NCBI GenBank assembly: GCA_963662275.1
Contig: OY759316.1
Span: forward strand, 3,232,001 to 3,296,000
Direction: 5' to 3'
Length of the DNA stretch: 64,000 nt
Origin: Candidatus Cloacimonadales bacterium
GTDB lineage: Bacteria > Cloacimonadota > Cloacimonadia > Cloacimonadales > DAONDQ01
Under the pieces are notes generated by a model. It was not told where the DNA came from. It was given only the letters and a program-made list of their open reading frames with translations, and ran no database searches. The position numbers and the translations under genes are program-made. Below are positions 33,892-44,504 of this stretch, one piece after another (within the stretch, counting starts at the first letter, position 1; the number at the start of each line of letters is the position of its first letter).

Positions 33892-34686
33892 TTACGCCTG
33901 GTCAGGATCTATTTCTTTAGTATTCGCTTTTTTCTTGGTCGTTTGTTTCTCAACTTTCAAGGCAGCAACTGCATCTTCAGATGTATCAACCTTCACTTTT
34001 GTGGTTTTTGCCTTAACGCTGACAGATGCTGTCTCCTCTTCTGAGGTTTCGGCATCCAAAGCTATTTCATTGGCTTCAATAGCGGAAATCTGTTCCGGTG
34101 TTGGTTCCGGTTCCATTTTGGAAATGATCTTATCAATCTCTTTCTTCGGGGATATGATCATCATGAGTAAGTTCTTTTCCGCTAAAGGCTGGGAATCAAC
34201 GTCAGCAATATAGGCTAAATCTGCTGCCAATCGTTCCAGGATGGAATAACCAAGTTCCTTGTGTGCCATCTGGCGACCACGGAATTTGACTGTGAATTTT
34301 ACCTTATTATGTTGTTTCAGGAAGCGAGTTGCATTATTCTTTTTAAAGTTGTAATCATGCTCCTCGGTACTCGGTCCGAACTTGATTTCCTTCACTTGAA
34401 TTTCATGCTGTTTCTTACGGGCTTCCTTCACTTTCTTTTCTTTTTGGTAGTAGTATTTGCTAAAATCCATGATGCGGCATACAGGTGGATCAGCAGTGGG
34501 TGATATTTCGACTAGATCAAGCTCTGCTTTCTCTGCCATTTTCATTGCTTCACTGGTTTTTACAATACCAACCTGTGTTCCGTCTGCATCAATTAAACGC
34601 ACCTGATCACATGTGATCTGGCGATTTGAGCGTTCTTTTGGCACGACTTCCTTCATCTTTGCCTTGCCTTTGCGAATCCGGATTAT
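33892..34686 (-). CDS. infC: Translation initiation factor IF-3, probable ATA start, long C-terminal tail
   Basis: 'LDLVEISP..PPVCRIMD', 'VKEIKF', 'FRGRQMAH'; AAGGAGG lies 5 nt before an in-frame ATA at 34686, while the ATG at 34656 lacks a comparable SD. Confidence 0.93.
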   Translation of the reverse strand: MIRIRKGKAKMKEVVPKERSNRQITCDQVRLIDADGTQVGIVKTSEAMKMAEKAELDLVEISPTADPPVCRIMDFSKYYYQKEKKVKEARKKQHEIQVKEIKFGPSTEEHDYNFKKNNATRFLKQHNKVKFTVKFRGRQMAHKELGYSILERLAADLAYIADVDSQPLAEKNLLMMIISPKKEIDKIISKMEPEPTPEQISAIEANEIALDAETSEEETASVSVKAKTTKVKVDTSEDAVAALKVEKQTTKKKANTKEIDPDQA

Positions 34687-34715
34687 AGTGGCCTCCTTAT
34701 GGTTATCGTGAACAT

Positions 34716-34830
34716 AAAAAAAGAGCGGATAAAATATCCGCCCGCTTTATAACTAAGTACATAAATCTCAATACATAGACCTTACTAATATCATCTGAAT
34801 CGTAAGGTAGAAGCGGACAGCCTCTTTACT
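34716..34830 (-). promoter_or_regulatory. L20-leader-like attenuator upstream of infC-rpmI-rplT
   Basis: 'GUCCGCUUCUACCUUAC...GUAAGGUC...AAAGCGGGC' pairing overlaps the terminator GCGGAUA-UUU-UAUCCGC-UCUUUUUUU. Confidence 0.7.
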
Positions 34831-35830
34831 CTATAACCAACTTCGTAGACTTCTGGAAATGCGTCAAGTGAATTCAGGAAATTTAACCACGAAACACACG
34901 AAATACACGAAAACAGATATTGTAAGGTAAGGATCAACGGATCAGAATCGTCTGGCATGTCGTAGAGTAGGACTCCGTTCCTGCTTCTGCTTTCGTTCTT
35001 CGCATTTCGCACTACGTATTTCGTACTTCGTACTTCCTTAGAATCCTTAGTATAGTTTAGAGCCTGAAACTTAATTAAACATTATTACGTGTCGATTTTC
35101 GACATCAAAAACGACATGAATAGCTTGTCTTTAAAAAGAATTAATAAAGCGTATTTTTAAATATCCTGTTCTTGTATAACCCCAAACAAAAAGGAGTTAA
35201 AGTGTGAAATCTGAAAATCTCTTATCACGTTTATCAGTCTGTTTTATCGATTTCCTTATTTGCTGGTAGCTGATAATTCTGAAAAACTCCACAGGAGTGA
35301 AATCCGATAACCTGACGTGTGAACGTCAGGATAGCTATGGGAAAAGAATGATAAAACGTTTCAACCCAACGCGGGTGACACTTTTACCGGAACGCTGTTT
35401 TCAAACGGCTATGCTCTGCAACTTCAAAAAGCCTCATAAATTAAGCATTCCATTAGCAATGTAGGGGTTTGCGGAAGTAAACCCATCTGCTGAATGTTGT
35501 GATATCAGTGAAGCAAGAAAAGCAGTAAGTTCATCTAAAATCGGATGCTCTAAATCTCAACTATCTTAACAGTTGAACAGTTCTGCTTTAAAGGGGTTGG
35601 GGGGTCTCTTTCTGTTCTACATTGAGTGGCACTTTGTTGTACGATGGGATTGGTTATCCCAGAGAAATGCAGATTCCGATAATACCATTATCGAATACAA
35701 CACATTACCAATGTATGTTACAACATTGGTGGTTACTCCTTGAGCTGTGTGGAAACTCCTTAAGGTGTTGGCTTCTCTTCTAAAAAGCAACGTAAACGAA
35801 GCTGCCACGATTCCTGAAGTAATCACCACA

Positions 35831-35851
35831 CCAAAACAGCTTACAAAGCTA
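35831..35851. repeat. 21-bp direct repeat, left copy (contains AGCTT-N3-AAGCT hairpin)
   Basis: ccaaaacagcttacaaagcta; partner ccaaaacagcttataaagcta at 37523-37543. Confidence 0.85.
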
Positions 35852-35884
35852 TAGTACAGGTAAAAAGGTAAGAAACCTAAAAAA

Positions 35885-36829
35885 CTACTGGACTGCCCTG
35901 CAGAGACGGACACCCTGGACGAAGTAGCTGACGTACGGGTTGACGTAGTACCGATTCGAAACCCGACAGTCGTAGGCATCGTTGCCCCAGTAACTGCCGC
36001 GTAGCACACGGTTGGGTCCGCTAACTGCACCCTGTGGATTCGTCTGCGCATCAGAGCTATAGGTGCCATACCAGTCCCAGCACCACTCATACACGTTGCC
36101 GCTCATATCATAGATTCCCAGAGCATTGGGAGCCTTCGTACCGACAGGATGAGATGTGTCCCCGGAGTTTGGATGGTACCACGCCACGGCATTCACATCA
36201 TCGCTGCCGATGTATAGATAATCCGGTGTGGAAGTTCCGCCCCTTGCTGCAAATTCCCACTCCGCTTCCGTAGGTAACCTGTACCCATTGGCTGTCCAGT
36301 TGCTGATTGCTGCATCCCAGGTAGCGTCATTTCCAGAAGTGGGAACTGTGCCCCAAGCTGTGGGATTTGTAGAACCACTGATCGTATAGACCGGAGTAAG
36401 ACCTTCGTTCAGACTGCGCAGGTTGCAATACTTCAGGATATCATACCTGGATACATAGTACACAGGATAGTTGCTTCCTACTCCGTATGTTGTTCCAAAT
36501 CCAAATGGATCGCTATTCCATGCTCCCATCACAGCCTCCCATTCGCCCTGCGTCAGCTCATACTTGCCAATCATAAACGATGATAACGTCACGCTGTGCG
36601 TTGGCAATTCCCATTCGATTGCGCCACCGTGTGTATCACCCATGGTGAAAGTACCCCCCGGCACCAACACCATCTGCCCAGGAGTTGTACCCTGGCTAAA
36701 AGTTATATCCGTAATTTCGTTCAGATTAAATGTGGTTGTACCGTTTGTAGTGTGCACATTCAGTTGAGCCTGCGCAAATAGAAAAGAGGTAAAAAGGATA
36801 AGGCAGCTAATAAGTAATATTTTATACAT
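35885..36829 (-). CDS. Secreted FGE-sulfatase/C-type-lectin-fold protein; probable DGR target gene
   Basis: 'MVLVPGGTFTMG', 'YELTQ', 'YRLPTEAEWEFAARGG', 'DMSGNVYEWCWDWY', 'RVLRGSYW...GVRLCR'; NNC-rich 3' end. Confidence 0.9.
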   Translation of the reverse strand: MYKILLISCLILFTSFLFAQAQLNVHTTNGTTTFNLNEITDITFSQGTTPGQMVLVPGGTFTMGDTHGGAIEWELPTHSVTLSSFMIGKYELTQGEWEAVMGAWNSDPFGFGTTYGVGSNYPVYYVSRYDILKYCNLRSLNEGLTPVYTISGSTNPTAWGTVPTSGNDATWDAAISNWTANGYRLPTEAEWEFAARGGTSTPDYLYIGSDDVNAVAWYHPNSGDTSHPVGTKAPNALGIYDMSGNVYEWCWDWYGTYSSDAQTNPQGAVSGPNRVLRGSYWGNDAYDCRVSNRYYVNPYVSYFVQGVRLCRAVQ

Positions 36830-36838
36830 AACATACTC

Positions 36839-37288
36839 CTATTTCAGCATCAGCATTTTATTGACTTTGATTTGGTCATCGCATTTAACCTTATAAATAT
36901 AAGGTCCCGAGGCACAGGTATTGCCGGATTCATTCAAGCCATTCCAGGTCAGTTCGTGTACACCTTTAGTCATGTTCTCTTTTGCAAGAACTTTCACCAG
37001 TTGTCCTCTGATGTTATAAATTGCGACTTCCGTCTGATACGATTCTGACAATTCAAATTTGATGATGGTTGAGGGATTAAAAGGATTGGGATAATTAGTT
37101 AAAAACTTAATGGGGACTTTGGGCAGAAACGTTACCCAATCATTATTAGAGACGTTATTAAATGTGATCTGCTGAATATCCTGCACCTGGAACTCCGTAG
37201 TTGTTCCATTGGATAAATGGACAATCATGACATCACAATACAGCAGAAACGGCGCTAAACAGAGGCAGACAAGAAAGATATATCTCAT
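36839..37288 (-). CDS. Small secreted protein: short N-terminal module plus CTD
   Basis: Signal peptide, 'NYPNPFNPST...IYNIRGQLV...SGPYIY'; GGAGG RBS. Confidence 0.88.
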   Translation of the reverse strand: MRYIFLVCLCLAPFLLYCDVMIVHLSNGTTTEFQVQDIQQITFNNVSNNDWVTFLPKVPIKFLTNYPNPFNPSTIIKFELSESYQTEVAIYNIRGQLVKVLAKENMTKGVHELTWNGLNESGNTCASGPYIYKVKCDDQIKVNKMLMLK

Positions 37289-37522
37289 AGTTCCTCCCTG
37301 ATGATTTGGATTATTTTTTTGAATTCACTTTTAATTGAAATTAAAATGTTTGATAATTATCGGTCAAGTTTTATTCTCTATTGACGTTGAAACGCCTTGG
37401 TTTGATGAATCAAACCGAACAACGAATGAATTCGTTGCTACGGTTATTCGTTGTTACGGTTACTAGTTGCTACGGTTTATTCGTTGTTCTGGTGATATAG
37501 TGGCTAGGTTTCAAACCCAACC

Positions 37523-37543
37523 CCAAAACAGCTTATAAAGCTA
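37523..37543. repeat. 21-bp direct repeat, right copy
   Basis: One mismatch to 35831-35851. Confidence 0.85.
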
Positions 37544-37868
37544 ATGATGACTGTAAGAGGTCAGACGCATGGGTCTATCCCTACAATCAGATGCATTTCA
37601 TGTTCCAGTATATTAGCTTCAGGGATAGCCATAAACAAGTTCTTCCGTCTTGAATTTACCGAAAAAGCCTTTGACTGCATGTCTAAATCTTACTTTCATT
37701 TCAACCTATTTTCAGATATTTTAACACGAACTCACCCTCTCTGAAACTGACACCTGGTACCTGAAACCTGTCACCTTCTTCATTGTGTTTCGTGGTTACA
37801 TTCTTCCTTTTTCTTCTTCCTCTTTCAATTTACTTATTTGAGTCAACTATCATACGGAAAAGATTATA

Positions 37869-37965
37869 CCGGTTTCAATCCTGTTTCATACCAGTTTCAA
37901 TCCTGTTTCATTCCTGTTTCGCAAAACTGATATGGAACAGGTATAAACCTTGCTTGGACTTGGAT
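37869..37965. repeat. 11-bp-period array (5 units) plus degenerate inverted units
   Basis: Same unit and architecture as 11259-11390. Confidence 0.85.
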
Positions 37966-38222
37966 TAAATTCAGTATCATATATTCGGTTCTTTGTTTGC
38001 CTGGAGGTAAGGTTGTCCCAACCTCGAAACGATAAGCATAAGGTGCTAGGTGCCAGACTCAGGGCGGAGCATCTGCAGAGTAGGCGAAAGGAATTCGCCT
38101 CGCACGCCGATAAGCAATCGGCGTTCCAGATGGGTCTGCTGACGCAAACCCCTACTTTTTTCTTGCCTTTGATTTCAAACATATTTCCAATTGCTTTTTT
38201 TTGTGAAGAAGGAGGCAATCCT

Positions 38223-39146
38223 ATGGATAGCAAAGTCATTGACTGGTTATTAACCGGGGATGTATCGATCCAGTACCAGGTTTATCGGGATCTACTGCAT
38301 GAAGATCGGAAAGAACTGCAGCAAAGGATTCACAACGAAGGTTGGTGTAAACATTTCCTGGATCTACAGAAGGATGATGGACATTGGGCGTTGGGTTGGT
38401 ATCGACCAAAATGGACTTGCACTCACTACACTTTACTTACTTTGAAATACCTCTCACCCATTAAAGAAATCTCTTCGATCCAGGGAATCATAGAAAGCGG
38501 TTTGAAGAATAACTTCGCCAAGGATGGGGGCATTGGTTTCTGGGGTAATCACACTTACAGTGACGTTTGCGTGAATGGCATGTTCCTGAACTATGCAGCT
38601 TATTTTGTCAAGCCGGATGAGCGTTTTCATATTCTCATCGATTCGCTGCTGAAGATGCAGATGAAGGATGGAGGCTGGAATTGTCGTTTTCGTCATGGTG
38701 CAGTTCATAGCTCTTTTCATACTACTTTAGCCGTACTGGAAGGCTTGTGGGAATATCGGCAAAATGATGGTGTTTATCGATTGAACGAAATCACAAAAGC
38801 GGAGAATAGAGCCATCGAATTTCTCCTTGAACACAATCTATTCCTTTCACATCGCACAAAAGAGATCGTAGATCCTAAAATGACCATTATTTCTTATCCT
38901 CCGCATTGGAGATATAATATCCTGAGGTCTTTGTTGTACTTCGTAGAAAGAAAATTACCCTGGGATGACAGGCTGAAACCTGCAATTGACCTATTGCTAA
39001 AAAAAAGAACACCGGAAGGTTTCTGGCTGCTTGAACAACATCAACCGGGGAAAGTGCATTTCCGAATGGAAAAAGTAGGAAAACAGAGTTATTGGAATAC
39101 GCTCAGAGCACTGAAAGTGCTGTCAGAATTAAAAATTAAAAGTTAA
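38223..39146 (+). CDS. Prenyltransferase/squalene-cyclase-like alpha-barrel protein (start revised)
   Basis: AAGGAGG before MDSKVIDWLL; QW-like repeats 'QKDDGHW', 'QMKDGGWNC'; 'YPPHWRYNILR', 'WNTLRALKVL'. Confidence 0.78.
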   Translation: MDSKVIDWLLTGDVSIQYQVYRDLLHEDRKELQQRIHNEGWCKHFLDLQKDDGHWALGWYRPKWTCTHYTLLTLKYLSPIKEISSIQGIIESGLKNNFAKDGGIGFWGNHTYSDVCVNGMFLNYAAYFVKPDERFHILIDSLLKMQMKDGGWNCRFRHGAVHSSFHTTLAVLEGLWEYRQNDGVYRLNEITKAENRAIEFLLEHNLFLSHRTKEIVDPKMTIISYPPHWRYNILRSLLYFVERKLPWDDRLKPAIDLLLKKRTPEGFWLLEQHQPGKVHFRMEKVGKQSYWNTLRALKVLSELKIKS

Positions 39147-39440: not shown

Positions 39441-41888
39441 CTATCTCACCAGCATCATTTTCTTCATATCTGTATAGTCTTTCGTTACCATACGATAGAA
39501 GTAAATTCCGCTAGCTACGGCTTTACCATTGGCATCCGTGCCATCCCAATTGGCTGTATAGGAACCGGCTGCCTTATTATTATCTATATAACTCCGAATA
39601 AGCTGACCTTTTACGTTATAGATATCAATCCTGACATCCTGCGCATCTTTCAAATCATACCGAAGAGATGTGCTTTCCTTGAATGGATTGGGATATGCAT
39701 TCAAGAGACATGTGAAGGCAGGAATAACCGAAGGAGTATCAGGATTAGAGCCGGCAGATGCCATCAGTGGACCGAAGTATTCGGTGGAACCACTCTGGGA
39801 GACGCTTTCCAGCCAGAAGTAATAAGGACTGTCCATCGCTTCATCCTGGTAAGCGAAGTTATAGGTGGTTTGCGTACCTGCACTGACACCATTGGATATG
39901 AGTGAAGTATTCAATTTTGTGGCAGAGCTTAAGTTGTTCATAGCTGAGCGCAGGACGTTAAAGCCCATGTGATTCGTTTCAGATTGGGTGATCCACTGCA
40001 GGCTGACATAATAGGATGAAGTTACCGCTGCTGTGAAGGAAGACAGTTCTACAGGCAACTCTACCTCTGCCCTATTATTGAAGACAACTTCAAAATCACC
40101 ATTCGCTTTGACAGCAGGGACTGTGAATGTGCATTGTGTATTCGTCCAGGTTCCGTCATTCGGATTGAATATTGTTGTAAATCCATTGGGAATGAAGCGA
40201 TAGGAGATTGAGCCGGGAGTAAAGCCCAGATTATGGGTAAAGGTAATAACTGCTCCGGAAAGAGAGCCGGAAGAAACATTGAGAACCAATGAAAGCCCTG
40301 AATTATTCAATAACGGATCAGGAGTTGTCCAGTACAGAGTGGCATTCACGGTCGGATCACCGGTTATATTAGTGATATGCAGATCGGTATCCAGCTCAAG
40401 ACCGGTGGTTGTATCATAGATAGGAGATGGATTCAGATCAACAACACCGCCGTTTGCATCTCCGGAAGAAGTCACTTTATCGTCACCATTCATCGTAATA
40501 CGGAAGTTATCGATATAAACATCTACTGTAGTTTCGAAGAAGTACATAAAGATATAATTATCAGATACAGATGGTGTAAAAACATATCTGCTAAGTGCGT
40601 AATCTGTATTGGTGACCATCGTGTGAAAACCACCACACAAACCTCGATTTCCAGTATCAAAACCATTATATCTAAGAATAAATACCTCGTCTGATGGGGG
40701 CATTGGCTGAGAGACACGGTAATTGTATTTGATTTCATATGTATTTCCTGCTATTAATCGAAACACGGGGCTCAGGATAATATTGTAACTATTATTGTAA
40801 TCTATGTCACCAGCCATCTTCATAGCATAGTTAGCCTCGCCATCGGGACAACGAAGACCCAAATGCATACCTGCTCTGTTGGGACTTTTCTGTGACACAG
40901 TAAAGATATTTTCAAGGGTTTCAGTATCCAAACCTCCTGCTGCTTTCTTTCCAGCAATATAAGATAGATTGTTCCATGTTAAATCCTCTACTTCGAAGTC
41001 TGCAAGATATGGGAAATCAACTATTTCATTTGTGAGTAATAAACCTCGTGTTCTGAATTTATAGACTTGGGAATTGACAGAATGTCCTAAATTATCCTCA
41101 AAATTGACATACCAGTAATAGGTTGTTTCATTTGCCAAAGGTTCTGCAGGAACAAACTGAGCATTAGTCCCATGATAGAGTAAACTGTAATTCAAGCTAT
41201 CTGTGCTGATATACACTGAAGAAGTGTATGACAAATTATAAAGATACCAGGAGAATTGTGTATCTATCTGAACATCTGTAGCGTTATTGCTCGGTGTAAT
41301 ATATAGTAACGGCGGACCTGCAGTGATACGGAAATTATCAAAATTTAAACTCGCTTGCTCAGTGCCACTCGCTACTCCTCCATAGTAGAAATATTTGGAT
41401 GAGCCACCCAAGAAACCAAGATTAATTGTACTCTCACTCCATCGATTTCCATTCCACTCACCATCAACTGCCAGATTCAATGTTTCGAGTTCCTGAGCCG
41501 TATAATAACCTGAGTTATCAGTACCCATCAATACTCGCAACCAAGTAGCATCATGGGTAAAATATGCATATCCGGAATAAGTAACTCGATAGAATTCTGA
41601 TCCTGCGGGGAAATCAACTCTTGGACTCGTCAGGTATGCAGTGTGATTTGCTGCTAAATTTACCCAGTTATTACCATCTGCAGCACCTGGTACAGAAGGA
41701 TTTGTTTGTTCAACAGAACCAAGTGAAAAAACATTACCAGATGGGGCAGTCCATCCAGCTGGTGGGAATGTTGGACCTTCGAAGCTTTCCTGATAAGGGA
41801 AGGTATTGACTACCGGTTCGACAGCAAAAAGCTGACTTAGGATGCCACAGGTAAAAATCAAAATGATTAGAAAGATAATCTGTTTCAT
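39441..41888 (-). CDS. Secreted multidomain (adhesin/MAM-like) protein with CTD, paralog B
   Basis: AAGGAG plus MKQIIF signal peptide; 'FPYQESFE..FPPAGW', 'DNFRI', 'LPVELSSFTA', CTD. Confidence 0.85.
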   Translation of the reverse strand: MKQIIFLIILIFTCGILSQLFAVEPVVNTFPYQESFEGPTFPPAGWTAPSGNVFSLGSVEQTNPSVPGAADGNNWVNLAANHTAYLTSPRVDFPAGSEFYRVTYSGYAYFTHDATWLRVLMGTDNSGYYTAQELETLNLAVDGEWNGNRWSESTINLGFLGGSSKYFYYGGVASGTEQASLNFDNFRITAGPPLLYITPSNNATDVQIDTQFSWYLYNLSYTSSVYISTDSLNYSLLYHGTNAQFVPAEPLANETTYYWYVNFEDNLGHSVNSQVYKFRTRGLLLTNEIVDFPYLADFEVEDLTWNNLSYIAGKKAAGGLDTETLENIFTVSQKSPNRAGMHLGLRCPDGEANYAMKMAGDIDYNNSYNIILSPVFRLIAGNTYEIKYNYRVSQPMPPSDEVFILRYNGFDTGNRGLCGGFHTMVTNTDYALSRYVFTPSVSDNYIFMYFFETTVDVYIDNFRITMNGDDKVTSSGDANGGVVDLNPSPIYDTTTGLELDTDLHITNITGDPTVNATLYWTTPDPLLNNSGLSLVLNVSSGSLSGAVITFTHNLGFTPGSISYRFIPNGFTTIFNPNDGTWTNTQCTFTVPAVKANGDFEVVFNNRAEVELPVELSSFTAAVTSSYYVSLQWITQSETNHMGFNVLRSAMNNLSSATKLNTSLISNGVSAGTQTTYNFAYQDEAMDSPYYFWLESVSQSGSTEYFGPLMASAGSNPDTPSVIPAFTCLLNAYPNPFKESTSLRYDLKDAQDVRIDIYNVKGQLIRSYIDNNKAAGSYTANWDGTDANGKAVASGIYFYRMVTKDYTDMKKMMLVR

Positions 41889-42068
41889 TTGTTTACTCCT
41901 TTTTTTGATATTCATTTTAATCTAGAGAAAAGAAGACCAGAACTAGCTCTCCCCTAAAATGTTCAACCCCCCTTAATCCCCCCTCGGGGAGGGGGGTAAA
42001 TGGGAGGGGAATCAGACAAGTCTTCTCTGCTCTGCAATTCTTAATTTTTAATTTTTAATTCTTAATTC

Positions 42069-44504
42069 CTATCTCACCAGCATCATCTTCTTCATATCAG
42101 TATAATCTTTAGTTACCATACGATAGAAGTAGATTCCACTGGCTAAGGCTTTGCCATTAGTATCTGTCCCGTCCCAGGTGGCTGTATAGGTACCGGCTGC
42201 CTTATTATTATCTATATAACTCCGAATAAGCTGACCTTTGACATTATAAATATCGATCCTGACATTCTGCGCATCCTTCAAATCGTAACGAAGAGATGTG
42301 CTTTCCTTGAAAGGATTGGGATATGCATTCAAGAGACATGTGAAGGCAGGAATAACAGAAGGTGTATCTGGATTTGAGCCGGCTGATGCCATCAGTGGAC
42401 CGAAGTATTCGGTGGAACCACTCTGGGATACACTTTCCAGCCAGAAGTAATAAGGACTGTCCATCGCTTCATCCTGGTAAGCAAAGTTATAGGTGGTTTG
42501 CGTACCTGCACTGACTCCATTGGAAATGAGTGATGTATTCAATTTTGTGGCTGAGCTTAAGTTGTTCATGGCTGAGCGCAGAACATTAAAACCCATATGA
42601 TTAGTTTCAGACTGCGTTACCCACTGCAGGCTGACATAATAGGATGAAGTTACCGCTGCTGTGAAGGAAGACAGTTCTACAGGCAACTCTACCTCTGCCC
42701 TATTATTGAAGACAACTTCAAAATCACCATTCGCTTTGACAGCAGGGACTGTGAATGTGCATTGTGTATTCGTCCAGGTTCCGTCATTCGGATTGAATAT
42801 TGTTGTAAATCCATTGGGAATGAAACGATAGGAGATTGAACCGGGTGTAAAGCCCAGGTTATGGGTAAAGGTGATGATCGCTCCTGAAAGAGAACCGGCA
42901 GAGACATTGAGTACCAATGAAAGCCCGGAGTTGTTCAATAACGGATCAGGAGTTGTCCAGTAAAGAGTGGCATTCACTGTCGGATCACCTGTAATATTGG
43001 TGATTTGCAGTTCGGTATCCAGCTCAAGACCGGTGGTTGAATCATAGATTGGAGCCGGATTCAGATCAACAACGCCACCGTTTGCATCTCCGGAAGCTGT
43101 CACTTTATCTTCACCATTCATCGAAATACGGAAGTTATCAATGTAAATATCAACAGATGAATAGTAATAAAAGAAAAAGAGATAATCATCCGTTCTAGTT
43201 GGAGTAATGATCACTCTCGAAAGTGCATAATCCGTATTCGTGATCATAAAATATGTATTCATCATCTCTTCGGTACTTCCAGGGGCTTGATAGAAAGCAA
43301 ATAAACCCCCACCCTCATTTCCCATAGGTTGGGAAACACGATAATTGAACTTAACTTCATACGTTGTACCTGCAACCAAGCGAACAAATGGAGAAAAGAG
43401 AATACCCAATACACCATTCTGCGCGGATGGCATCTTCATTGCATAATTAACTCCACCATCAAGACAACGTTCAGCATATTGCACCTGTTCTCTCGTTGAG
43501 CCCTTCTTAATACCGAATATTTTTTTTCCCAGAGCATCCATATCCTGAGCTTCTGGTATACTTTTCCCAACATTTAAGTTCGCTGTATTATTCCATGATA
43601 AGTCATCTACCTGGAAGTCATCCAAGTAAGGAAAGTCAACTATTTCGCCCGGCATGGGTGTGTTTCCTCTTGTTGTGAAAGAACATACAGGGGTATTGAC
43701 TGAGTGTCCCAAATTATCTTGAATCTGGACATACCAGTAATAGGTTGTTTCAATATTGAGAGGATTGTCAGGGGTATTCTGATTGCTTGTTCCAGTATAG
43801 AGTAAATTGTAATTCAAGCTATCAGTGCTTATATAGACTGAATAAGTATATGCCGAATTGGAAATGCCCCACCAAAATGCTGTAGTTGGACGAATATCAA
43901 CAGCATGATTAGCAGGTGTAACTTCGAGAACAGGAGGTCCGGCAGTTATCCGGAAATCATCAAAATTCAAATCTGCACCCCAAGCTTGACCACCTATAAA
44001 GAAATACTTTGCAGAACCATCCATAAAACCTAGATGATCTGTAAGCGTTCTCCAGCGACTTCCATTCCATTCAGCATCATTCCCCATATTCCATACATCA
44101 ACTTGCTCACTCGAATTAGGATTAGTATCAGATCCCATCCTTACTCTAAATATCATAGAGGAAGGTGAAAAACAATATCCAGAAATACTTAACTGATAGA
44201 ATTCAGATCCGGAAGGAAACTCAAATTTAGGACTGGTAATCAATCCATCGTTTCCAGCTGCCATATTTACCCAGTTATTGCCATCTATAGCACCTGGTAC
44301 GACAGGATTTGTTTGTTCAGCAGAGTTAAGTGAAAAAATGCCTGGAGCAAACATCGGGTTTACTGACCATCCCGCTGGCGGGAAGGTGCTGCCTTCAAAG
44401 CTTTCCTGATAAGGGAAAGTATTGATGGCAACTGCTTCAGCAAAAAGCTGGCTAAGGATGCAACAGGTGAAAGCTAAGATGACAAGAATGAGTATTTTTT
44501 TCAT
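42069..44504 (-). CDS. Secreted multidomain (adhesin/MAM-like) protein with CTD, paralog A
   Basis: Same architecture as 39441..41888; C-terminal roughly 340 aa nearly identical. Confidence 0.88.
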   Translation of the reverse strand: MKKILILVILAFTCCILSQLFAEAVAINTFPYQESFEGSTFPPAGWSVNPMFAPGIFSLNSAEQTNPVVPGAIDGNNWVNMAAGNDGLITSPKFEFPSGSEFYQLSISGYCFSPSSMIFRVRMGSDTNPNSSEQVDVWNMGNDAEWNGSRWRTLTDHLGFMDGSAKYFFIGGQAWGADLNFDDFRITAGPPVLEVTPANHAVDIRPTTAFWWGISNSAYTYSVYISTDSLNYNLLYTGTSNQNTPDNPLNIETTYYWYVQIQDNLGHSVNTPVCSFTTRGNTPMPGEIVDFPYLDDFQVDDLSWNNTANLNVGKSIPEAQDMDALGKKIFGIKKGSTREQVQYAERCLDGGVNYAMKMPSAQNGVLGILFSPFVRLVAGTTYEVKFNYRVSQPMGNEGGGLFAFYQAPGSTEEMMNTYFMITNTDYALSRVIITPTRTDDYLFFFYYYSSVDIYIDNFRISMNGEDKVTASGDANGGVVDLNPAPIYDSTTGLELDTELQITNITGDPTVNATLYWTTPDPLLNNSGLSLVLNVSAGSLSGAIITFTHNLGFTPGSISYRFIPNGFTTIFNPNDGTWTNTQCTFTVPAVKANGDFEVVFNNRAEVELPVELSSFTAAVTSSYYVSLQWVTQSETNHMGFNVLRSAMNNLSSATKLNTSLISNGVSAGTQTTYNFAYQDEAMDSPYYFWLESVSQSGSTEYFGPLMASAGSNPDTPSVIPAFTCLLNAYPNPFKESTSLRYDLKDAQNVRIDIYNVKGQLIRSYIDNNKAAGTYTATWDGTDTNGKALASGIYFYRMVTKDYTDMKKMMLVR

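Follow-up and report, generated by a model that had tools for sequence, protein, structure and literature searches.

Type IX secretion system (T9SS) cargo exported through a type A C-terminal sorting domain (CTD) includes, for example, RgpB, PorU and PorZ of P. gingivalis, and in every T9SS cargo so far known to us the sorting domain sits in cis. Other export systems let an untargeted protein ride, folded, on a targeted partner, as in "hitchhiker" co-export by the twin-arginine translocation (Tat) pathway and in the export of assembled oligomers by the type II secretion system (T2SS). In cohesin-dockerin surface display, diverse secreted domains bear a short common tag and an anchored partner bears the matching element. 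TvpA, the Treponema denticola variable protein 1, is a lipoprotein and the variable protein of a diversity-generating retroelement (DGR). Here we describe a two-gene locus in a stretch of 64,000 nucleotides (nt) from the genome of a Candidatus Cloacimonadales bacterium (contig OY759316.1, positions 3,232,001 to 3,296,000; hereafter the window), in which the gene for a small CTD protein, the "carrier," directly precedes the gene for a CTD-less lectin-like protein, the "cargo," and both products carry a similar module of about 25 amino acids (aa). We observed the structure of this gene pair, the homology of the modules and their exclusivity, the adjacency of such genes in two phyla, the absence of a CTD from long module proteins, and homologues of SprA and PorU. 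Taken together, the data suggest that surface proteins can borrow an export tag from a partner.

The carrier resembles T9SS type A cargo in that it ends in a CTD, and the CTD of one of its orthologues superposes on those of PorU and PorZ. It differs in that the known CTDs act in cis, whereas here the CTD comes with just a 26-aa module, its likely passenger being a second polypeptide whose gene lies 9 nt downstream. Any likeness to Tat hitchhiking and to T2SS export of oligomers would be one of logic, an untargeted protein riding on a targeted one; membrane, machinery and signal all differ, the sequences are unrelated, and the interaction in our case is one that we infer. Cohesin-dockerin display is likewise similar by logic alone, and differs in that tag and partner element are here homologous to each other, with mostly one carrier gene per cargo gene. 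With TvpA the cargo shares a domain of the FGE/C-type lectin (CLec) fold whose variable part is C-terminal; unlike TvpA, it has a signal of the signal peptidase I (SPI) type and the module, and no DGR was found in its genome.

The original prediction, made from the sequence of the window, had placed two co-oriented genes 9 nt apart, and we find them exactly so, on the minus strand. The features of the pair, in window coordinates, are as follows.

36839..37288, minus strand: small "carrier" gene, 149 aa (open reading frame [ORF] call), with a signal peptide, one module, a linker and a predicted T9SS type A CTD.
37157..37234, minus strand: carrier module, aa 19-44, DVMIVHLSNGTTTEFQVQDIQQITFN (from the translation; in a scan of 13,930 ORFs the cargo-module-only profile matched it at E 1.7e-6).
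36842..37093, minus strand: carrier C-terminal sorting domain, aa 66-149 (Pfam, NCBIfam).
36830..36838, minus strand: spacer of 9 nt, GAGTATGTT (read from the sequence; most related pairs are spaced by 3-20 nt).
35885..36829, minus strand: "cargo" gene, 314 aa, with a signal peptide, the module and an FGE-sulfatase/CLec domain reaching to the C-terminus, without a CTD.
36692..36766, minus strand: cargo module, aa 22-46, QLNVHTTNGTTTFNLNEITDITFSQ (from the translation; matched by the small-module-only profile at E 1.4e-5).
35888..36007, minus strand: C-terminal 40 aa of the cargo CLec domain, the most divergent part among six paralogues.

The predicted makeup of both proteins held up under family searches. 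The carrier comprises a signal peptide, the module and a CTD only: Por_Secre_tail (PF18962) matched residues 66-145 of 149 at 30.4 bits (cut-off 27), TIGR04183 of NCBIfam matched at 38.9 bits (cut-off 23), FlgD_ig also matched, and a linker of 21 aa separates the module from the CTD. The cargo comprises a signal peptide, the similar module and an FGE/CLec domain, with FGE-sulfatase (PF03781) covering residues 52-310 at 160.7 bits (cut-off 23.3) and no CTD match in Pfam. Its signal peptide ends in AQA; the carrier N-terminus is hydrophobic and forms a helix at residues 2-15 in the AlphaFold2 (AF2) model, which has a mean predicted local distance difference test score (pLDDT) of 80.0. The TAG stop codon of the carrier and the spacer together form an AGGAG Shine-Dalgarno-like motif, 7 nt before the cargo ATG, and the close spacing suggests that the two genes are translationally coupled. 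We also considered the carrier as a lipoprotein and rejected this, since the Cys at its LLYC/D junction varies among orthologues.

Homology of the two modules, proposed originally from their likeness, was supported by profile comparison. Compared by eye, the carrier and cargo modules have the same residue at 12 of 24 aligned positions. When the first 50 aa of the cargo were searched with phmmer against the 13,930 ORFs of the genome, 6 cargo paralogues were recovered and then exactly 5 small proteins, the latter at E 0.0016-0.019 and the next match at 0.065. Separate profiles of the two kinds of module, built from related loci with signal peptide and CTD excluded, matched reciprocally: with the cargo-module-only profile, E values for the 5 small proteins ranged from 1.7e-6 to 4.5e-4 (nearest unrelated match 0.23), and with the small-module-only profile those for the 6 cargos ranged from 3.6e-6 to 4.6e-4 (next match 0.5). 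Alignments of the cargo and carrier modules compared with hhalign gave a probability of 97.4 over 27 columns, a figure that is partly circular because both module sets had been chosen with a joint profile. Within the genome the module is confined to 11 of the 13,930 ORFs, namely five pairs and one lone cargo, and in a scan of the window pair no Pfam or NCBIfam model covered it.

For the two-module carrier L021, AF2 (mean pLDDT 77.7) predicted three strands in each module (residues 22-27, 30-35 and 39-45, and residues 48-53, 58-62 and 66-72), all six at block pLDDT 79-88. In the one-module carrier of the window the first two module strands were modeled and the segment with IQQITF, where the module is most conserved, was not a strand (block pLDDT 57); this would fit, without proving it, a module that needs a second module for a complete sheet. 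A protein-atlas search with carrier residues 19-66 returned a best score of 0.78, below lead level. Prediction of a complex between mature cargo (residues 21-314) and mature carrier (residues 19-149) scored 0.21 in two runs against a mark of 0.32, which is to be read as "no answer."

The genome, a single contig of 4.38 Mb that is 99.97% complete, contains five carrier-cargo pairs, each with a gap of 9 nt, as well as a single cargo that has no carrier. Carrier and cargo genes duplicate together. Mean pairwise identity among the six cargo paralogues is 0.82 in the signal peptide and module, 0.65 in the body of the lectin domain and 0.39 in the last 40 aa. Short CTD proteins are rare in this genome: 237 CTD ORFs occur among 3,893 ORFs of at least 100 aa, and just 12 of them are 240 aa or shorter. 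Seven of the 12 have a signal-peptide-like N-terminus (by eye), and all 7 are encoded directly upstream of FGE genes; 5 are of the module type, and 2 are of a second kind without the module. This second kind, of 131 and 134 aa (genome positions 3037296-3037691 and 3212718-3213122), consists of a signal peptide, about 30 aa and a CTD, and its genes lie directly upstream of FGE/CLec genes of 362 and 385 aa. A co-oriented CTD gene stands directly upstream of 9 of the 34 FGE ORFs of the genome. Elsewhere, at genome positions 2907597-2917574, a single ORF of 3,325 aa contains 10 FGE/CLec domains.

Searching with the carrier revealed full-length small-carrier orthologues in several families of the order, and all 8 of the first 8 that were fetched are followed directly by a gene encoding a signal peptide and the module. 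A profile of the cargo N-terminus (A1) matched 51 of 151 genomes of the order at E <= 1e-3 and, at E <= 1e-5, 41 of 232 genomes of the phylum Cloacimonadota, representing 23 of 66 genera; two of the matching genomes belong to a family (f17) of the same class rather than the same order. Adjacency was evaluated at the 30 best places (L021-L050) and at 20 places chosen from weaker rows (L051-L070), with no cargo row coming from L052 (a match to the signal peptide only) or from L053 and L054 (modules under threshold). This sample held 48 module-bearing genes without a CTD. Directly upstream of 32 of them lies a CTD gene of at most 240 aa, at a gap of 3-97 nt that is mostly 8-15 nt; in 4 cases the upstream CTD gene is larger or cut at its 5' end, 1 gene comes after another cargo within an operon of one carrier and three cargos (L055), 9 lack an upstream CTD gene, and 2 are at contig ends. 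Some of the more divergent carrier modules were recognized by eye only. The cargo domains at the Cloacimonadota loci are varied and include FGE-sulfatase, CHB_HEX_C_1 with FGE, CpeT, DOMON, a PD40/DUF5050 propeller, DUF4886, Laminin_G_3, Cthe_2159 and an Ig-like domain, along with unassigned domains. In one genome (locus L036, G102), a module cargo has directly upstream of it the gene for a protein longer than 496 aa whose CTD is near-identical by eye to the CTD of the L038 carrier from the same genus (G042), which suggests replacement of the N-terminal part of a carrier.

The same two architectures were seen in a much larger protein set. Against 1.84 billion proteins the A1 profile matched 482 representatives at E <= 1e-3, and the best 150 of these 482 were taken, to which the counts in this paragraph refer. 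The module was present, as judged by profile, in 144 of the 150. We inspected 95 representatives of at least 180 aa, after one 2043-aa match without the module had been dropped. Four of the 95 end in a CTD and are of the carrier type, being 188-211 aa long and holding two or three modules. A C-terminal CTD is absent from the remaining 91, among which P0182 shows a weak internal match. Long module proteins, then, have no CTD of their own, and module proteins with a CTD have nothing else. Pfam assigned Laminin_G_3 to 31 of the 95, Laminin_G_2 to 8, Fib_succ_major to 6, and FGE-sulfatase and Lcl_C to 5 each; propellers, Kelch and carbohydrate-binding modules (CBMs) were also found.

One representative, P0247, falls in a cluster named for a DUF1566 protein of a Paludibacteraceae bacterium, and the pair is indeed found in the phylum Bacteroidota. 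At locus L071, a protein of 159 aa, which comprises a signal peptide, two module-like units and a Por_Secre_tail match of 43.9 bits, ends 4 nt before a 473-aa cargo with a signal peptide, the module and Lcl_C, and a second such pair lies on the opposite strand. The A1 profile matched 9 places in this Paludibacteraceae genome (G232), 8 of which were examined; a small protein is encoded directly upstream in 7 of the 8, with gaps of -4 to 16 nt. Por_Secre_tail scored above its cut-off in 5 of these 7 small proteins; of the other two, one matched DUF6383 alone, and weakly, and one had no family match. The cargos are LRR_5 proteins of the BspA type and Lcl_C proteins. A Candidatus Aphodosoma genome contributes one further pair (L077) and another place that lies too near the end of its contig for judgment. 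The cassette is conserved in two phyla. Whether the two architectures co-occur as neighbors was a test set by the original prediction, and they do so in the 5 genome copies, in 32 of the 48 Cloacimonadota genes and in Bacteroidota.

The carrier is a predicted T9SS type A CTD protein, and the genome that encodes it also encodes T9SS machinery. A genome search gave SprA_N at 66.7 bits (cut-off 27) in a 2,090-aa frame and the PorU sortase equivalog NF033707 at 582 bits (cut-off 420). A passage of PMC11285876 places Cloacimonadota among the phyla that may have a T9SS. The fold search with the L021 model returned a match list filled by the CTD and hence is informative on the CTD alone: this CTD aligned with the PorU CTD (6za2_B) at Z 10.0 and rmsd 2.4 over 91 residues, with PorZ (5m11_A) at Z 8.1 and with the mirolase CTD (8qb1_A) at Z 7.6. 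The window carrier is modeled by AF2 with six strands of at least 3 residues within residues 74-148 (block pLDDT 82-96). Judged on the model of the orthologue L021, the carrier CTD is predicted to be an Ig-like beta-sandwich like the solved CTDs.

The cargo head is of the variable-lectin kind, and no diversification by a DGR is encoded in the genome. Its best solved relative is TvpA (2y3c_A; E 4e-44, residues 77-309), with true formylglycine-generating enzymes at about 1e-17, and its last 40 aa align to the C-terminal part of TvpA. In 33 of the 34 FGE ORFs of the genome, the FGE domain ends at most 12 residues from the C-terminus, and a CTD was found in 0 of these 34 and in 0 of the 120 homologues listed. 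Many Cloacimonadota homologues start instead with a lipoprotein-like signal (by eye). Four such lipoproteins, P0090, P0098, P0114 and P0130, are alike by eye save in their last ~35 residues, a pattern that has the look of DGR variation elsewhere in the FGE/CLec family.

The original prediction had described the cargo as a diversified binder, and in this organism that description found no support. The 18 RVT_1 places of the genome comprise 16 multi-copy and one single-copy reverse transcriptase (RT) of the group II intron type and one RT-Cas1-like fusion; two types, the single-copy 397-aa RT and one multi-copy RT, were scanned for GIIM, and both carry it. No DGR-type RT was found among these 18 places. 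The fusion, of 893 aa (genome positions 3092718-3095399), has a Cas1-like C-terminal part and short repeats nearby (by eye). When the last 170 nt of the six paralogues were searched by BLAST against the genome, no template repeat was found: 93 of 95 matches lie within other FGE ORFs, and 2 lie on the remnant of an FGE gene at 1.953 Mb. Contigs from two sequencing runs of two studies are identical to the window over the whole cargo gene. These are among contigs from four runs aligned to the window at 80% likeness, where paralogues pile up; in runs X4 and X5 the bin 35995-36053 is without cover, a hole that proves nothing. Since no DGR-type RT and no template repeat were found in the genome and the run contigs are identical, we conclude that the head is not DGR-diversified by this genome. 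The six cargos compared are diverged paralogues rather than variants of one locus.

In light of these data, we propose a two-gene T9SS cassette, which in our judgment stands at about an even chance, in which a small CTD protein would carry or anchor a CTD-less cargo through pairing of their modules. The carrier consists of one to three copies of a predicted three-stranded beta module of about 25 aa, a short linker and a T9SS type A CTD; the mature cargo begins with the module, continues into a domain of a binding or enzymatic kind and has no CTD. Both proteins would be exported to the periplasm by Sec, where the homologous modules would pair, probably via the conserved last strand I-x-x-I-T-F. 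The carrier CTD would then take the complex through the SprA translocon, and after processing by PorU the carrier would tether the cargo at the cell surface. For the window cargo, this may present a TvpA-like head of C-type lectin fold whose variable ligand-binding end is the free C-terminus. We favor a carrier function for the small protein because it has no other part that could function, because the cargos have domains of kinds that bind outside the cell, signals that look SPI-like by eye and, as far as is evident, no other way through the outer membrane, and because the genes are spaced for coupled translation and long module proteins never have a CTD of their own. With a probability we put somewhat short of even, the cassette may represent a general "CTD in trans" branch of the T9SS in the Fibrobacteres-Chlorobi-Bacteroidetes (FCB) group, in which mini-carriers would bring adhesins, lectins and enzymes that have no such signal themselves through SprA and, once processed by PorU, keep them noncovalently at the cell surface, letting heads with a constrained C-terminus, such as DGR-type CLec domains, be displayed.

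Several observations weigh against this proposal. Physical binding, co-transport and anchoring are steps that we infer. Nine of the 46 cargo genes whose neighborhood could be determined have no adjacent CTD gene, and when two 99%-complete genomes with lone cargos (G131 and G229) were searched with the carrier alignment, the matches listed included no small carrier of full length; it follows that a cargo need not have a carrier, or that its carrier may act in trans or be replaced by a different partner. Carriers hold between 1 and 3 modules, which fits a simple closed 1:1 dimer poorly. In one Bacteroidota genome, the carrier module best matches that of its own cargo in 3 of 7 rows (permutation fraction 0.031), a result too weak to use because the pairs are not independent, three of the seven being close copies of one another. 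Among the T9SS components, PorP_SprF just reaches its cut-off at 22.3 bits, and GldM_4th has no match in the genome, a family on which control genomes were likewise silent. Finally, ORF starts came from a simple ORF script, and signal peptides were assigned on inspection and from the helices that AF2 placed at the N-termini.

The main rival to a carrier, in itself rather unlikely, is that the module serves as a shared address tag: rather than joining the two proteins, each module would bind the same third component, for instance a surface glycan, lipopolysaccharide (LPS) or a PorV-like T9SS shuttle, and the small protein would act as a primer, competitor or spacer for cargo docking. Such a tag would account for tandem modules, which are reminiscent of cell surface binding repeats, for the cargos that occur without an adjacent carrier and for the weakness of cognate-specific module similarity. 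However, it provides no route across the outer membrane for CTD-less cargo of the SPI type, and it explains neither the tight one-to-one adjacency with gaps of 3-20 nt nor the lack of an own CTD in long module proteins (0 of 91 among the best 150 of 482 representatives). We consider it improbable that the small protein is a periplasmic cap or chaperone that transiently covers the exposed beta edge of the cargo module and then exits by the T9SS, preventing aggregation or early assembly while the cargo remains periplasmic or leaves in vesicles. The homology of the modules, the unpaired third strand in the carrier model and the close gene spacing, which suggests coupled translation, would agree with a cap; nonetheless, cargo domains such as lectins, adhesins and CBMs are expected outside the cell, a CTD would be wasteful on a mere chaperone, and our literature search found no precedent.

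A further explanation for the shared module could be that the two proteins do not interact functionally, the upstream gene being a duplicated 5' end of the cargo gene joined to a CTD and kept via co-regulation. Such a duplication would equally give the shared N-terminal similarity, but we find this account quite improbable in view of the conservation of the arrangement in Bacteroidota as well as in 23 of the 66 Cloacimonadota genera, the module being the best conserved part of the cargo paralogues (0.82 versus 0.65 and 0.39), and the small ORF remaining intact in carrier orthologues down to 34% identity with the window protein. Least probable of all, to the point of being hardly tenable, is the explanation offered by the original prediction, that the genes are split because the variable C-terminus of an actively DGR-diversified head excludes a CTD. 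Part of this explanation stands: among solved structures TvpA is the nearest relative, divergence is greatest in the last 40 aa, 33 of the 34 FGE ORFs have their FGE domain at the C-terminus and a CTD occurs in none of the 34, and P0090, P0098, P0114 and P0130 differ by eye in the C-terminal stretch alone. Against it are the failure to find a DGR-type RT in a 99.97%-complete single-contig genome, the location of the variable-region (VR) BLAST matches in FGE genes (93 of 95, with 2 on the remnant), and run contigs identical to the window. Moreover, most cargos of the family are not CLec proteins, Laminin_G_3 being the commonest domain (31 of 95 among the best 150 of 482); carriers also serve LamG, CpeT, DOMON, PD40, DUF4886, LRR_5 and Lcl_C cargos, and a clash at the DGR C-terminus is therefore not the general cause of the split.

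The proposed carrier-cargo cassette would amount to T9SS targeting by a Tat-hitchhiking-like logic. A search of the full-text literature, with most subscription journals outside its reach, found no account of a protein that obtains its CTD from a partner, and passages of PMC6247017 and PMC10994853 describe none. T9SS secretomes are predicted via CTD-based searches; if the proposal is correct, such predictions miss LamG, CLec/DUF1566, BspA-type leucine-rich repeat (LRR), DOMON and propeller surface proteins, a gap that would affect Cloacimonadota and Bacteroidales, gut and oral relatives included. The T9SS translocon would then have to pass hetero-complexes, and the 25-aa tag with its mini-carrier would constitute a ready-made modular tool for surface display. 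The carrier hypothesis is directly testable in cultivable Bacteroidota with such pairs.

Additional features were noted around the pair. A 31-nt direct repeat, 84% identical, brackets the two-gene cassette (35821-35851 and 37513-37543). In contigs of runs X1 and X3, position 35830 is joined to position 37385 and both genes are missing; this joint may derive from the repeats flanking the cassette. Directly downstream of the cargo gene lies a further repeat:

35729..35829, no strand assigned: repeat of ~100 nt, with 53 BLAST matches in the genome.

Copies of this ~100-nt repeat form a tandem array with a period of ~110 nt at genome positions 2350680-2354240, and several copies adjoin other FGE genes, e.g., at 460519, 2780038, 3176084, 4247254 and 4326686; no Rfam match was found for the repeat region when window positions 34650-38000 were scanned. 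Two matches below gathering thresholds lie on the minus strand further downstream: an L20 leader (34711-34833, 47.3 bits versus 58.7), upstream of genes resembling infC-rpmI-rplT, and an Acido-Lenti-1 sRNA (35285-35330, 34.8 bits versus 37), within the long intergenic stretch that follows the cargo gene. On the other side of the pair, four overlapping copies of a 22-nt unit, spaced by 11 nt, occupy positions 37866-37920, upstream of a 398-aa ORF (37950-39146). Beyond it, two adjacent minus-strand genes (39441-41915 and 42069-44504) encode large CTD proteins of 824 and 811 aa, whose C-terminal halves are near-identical by eye and whose N-terminal halves are unlike.

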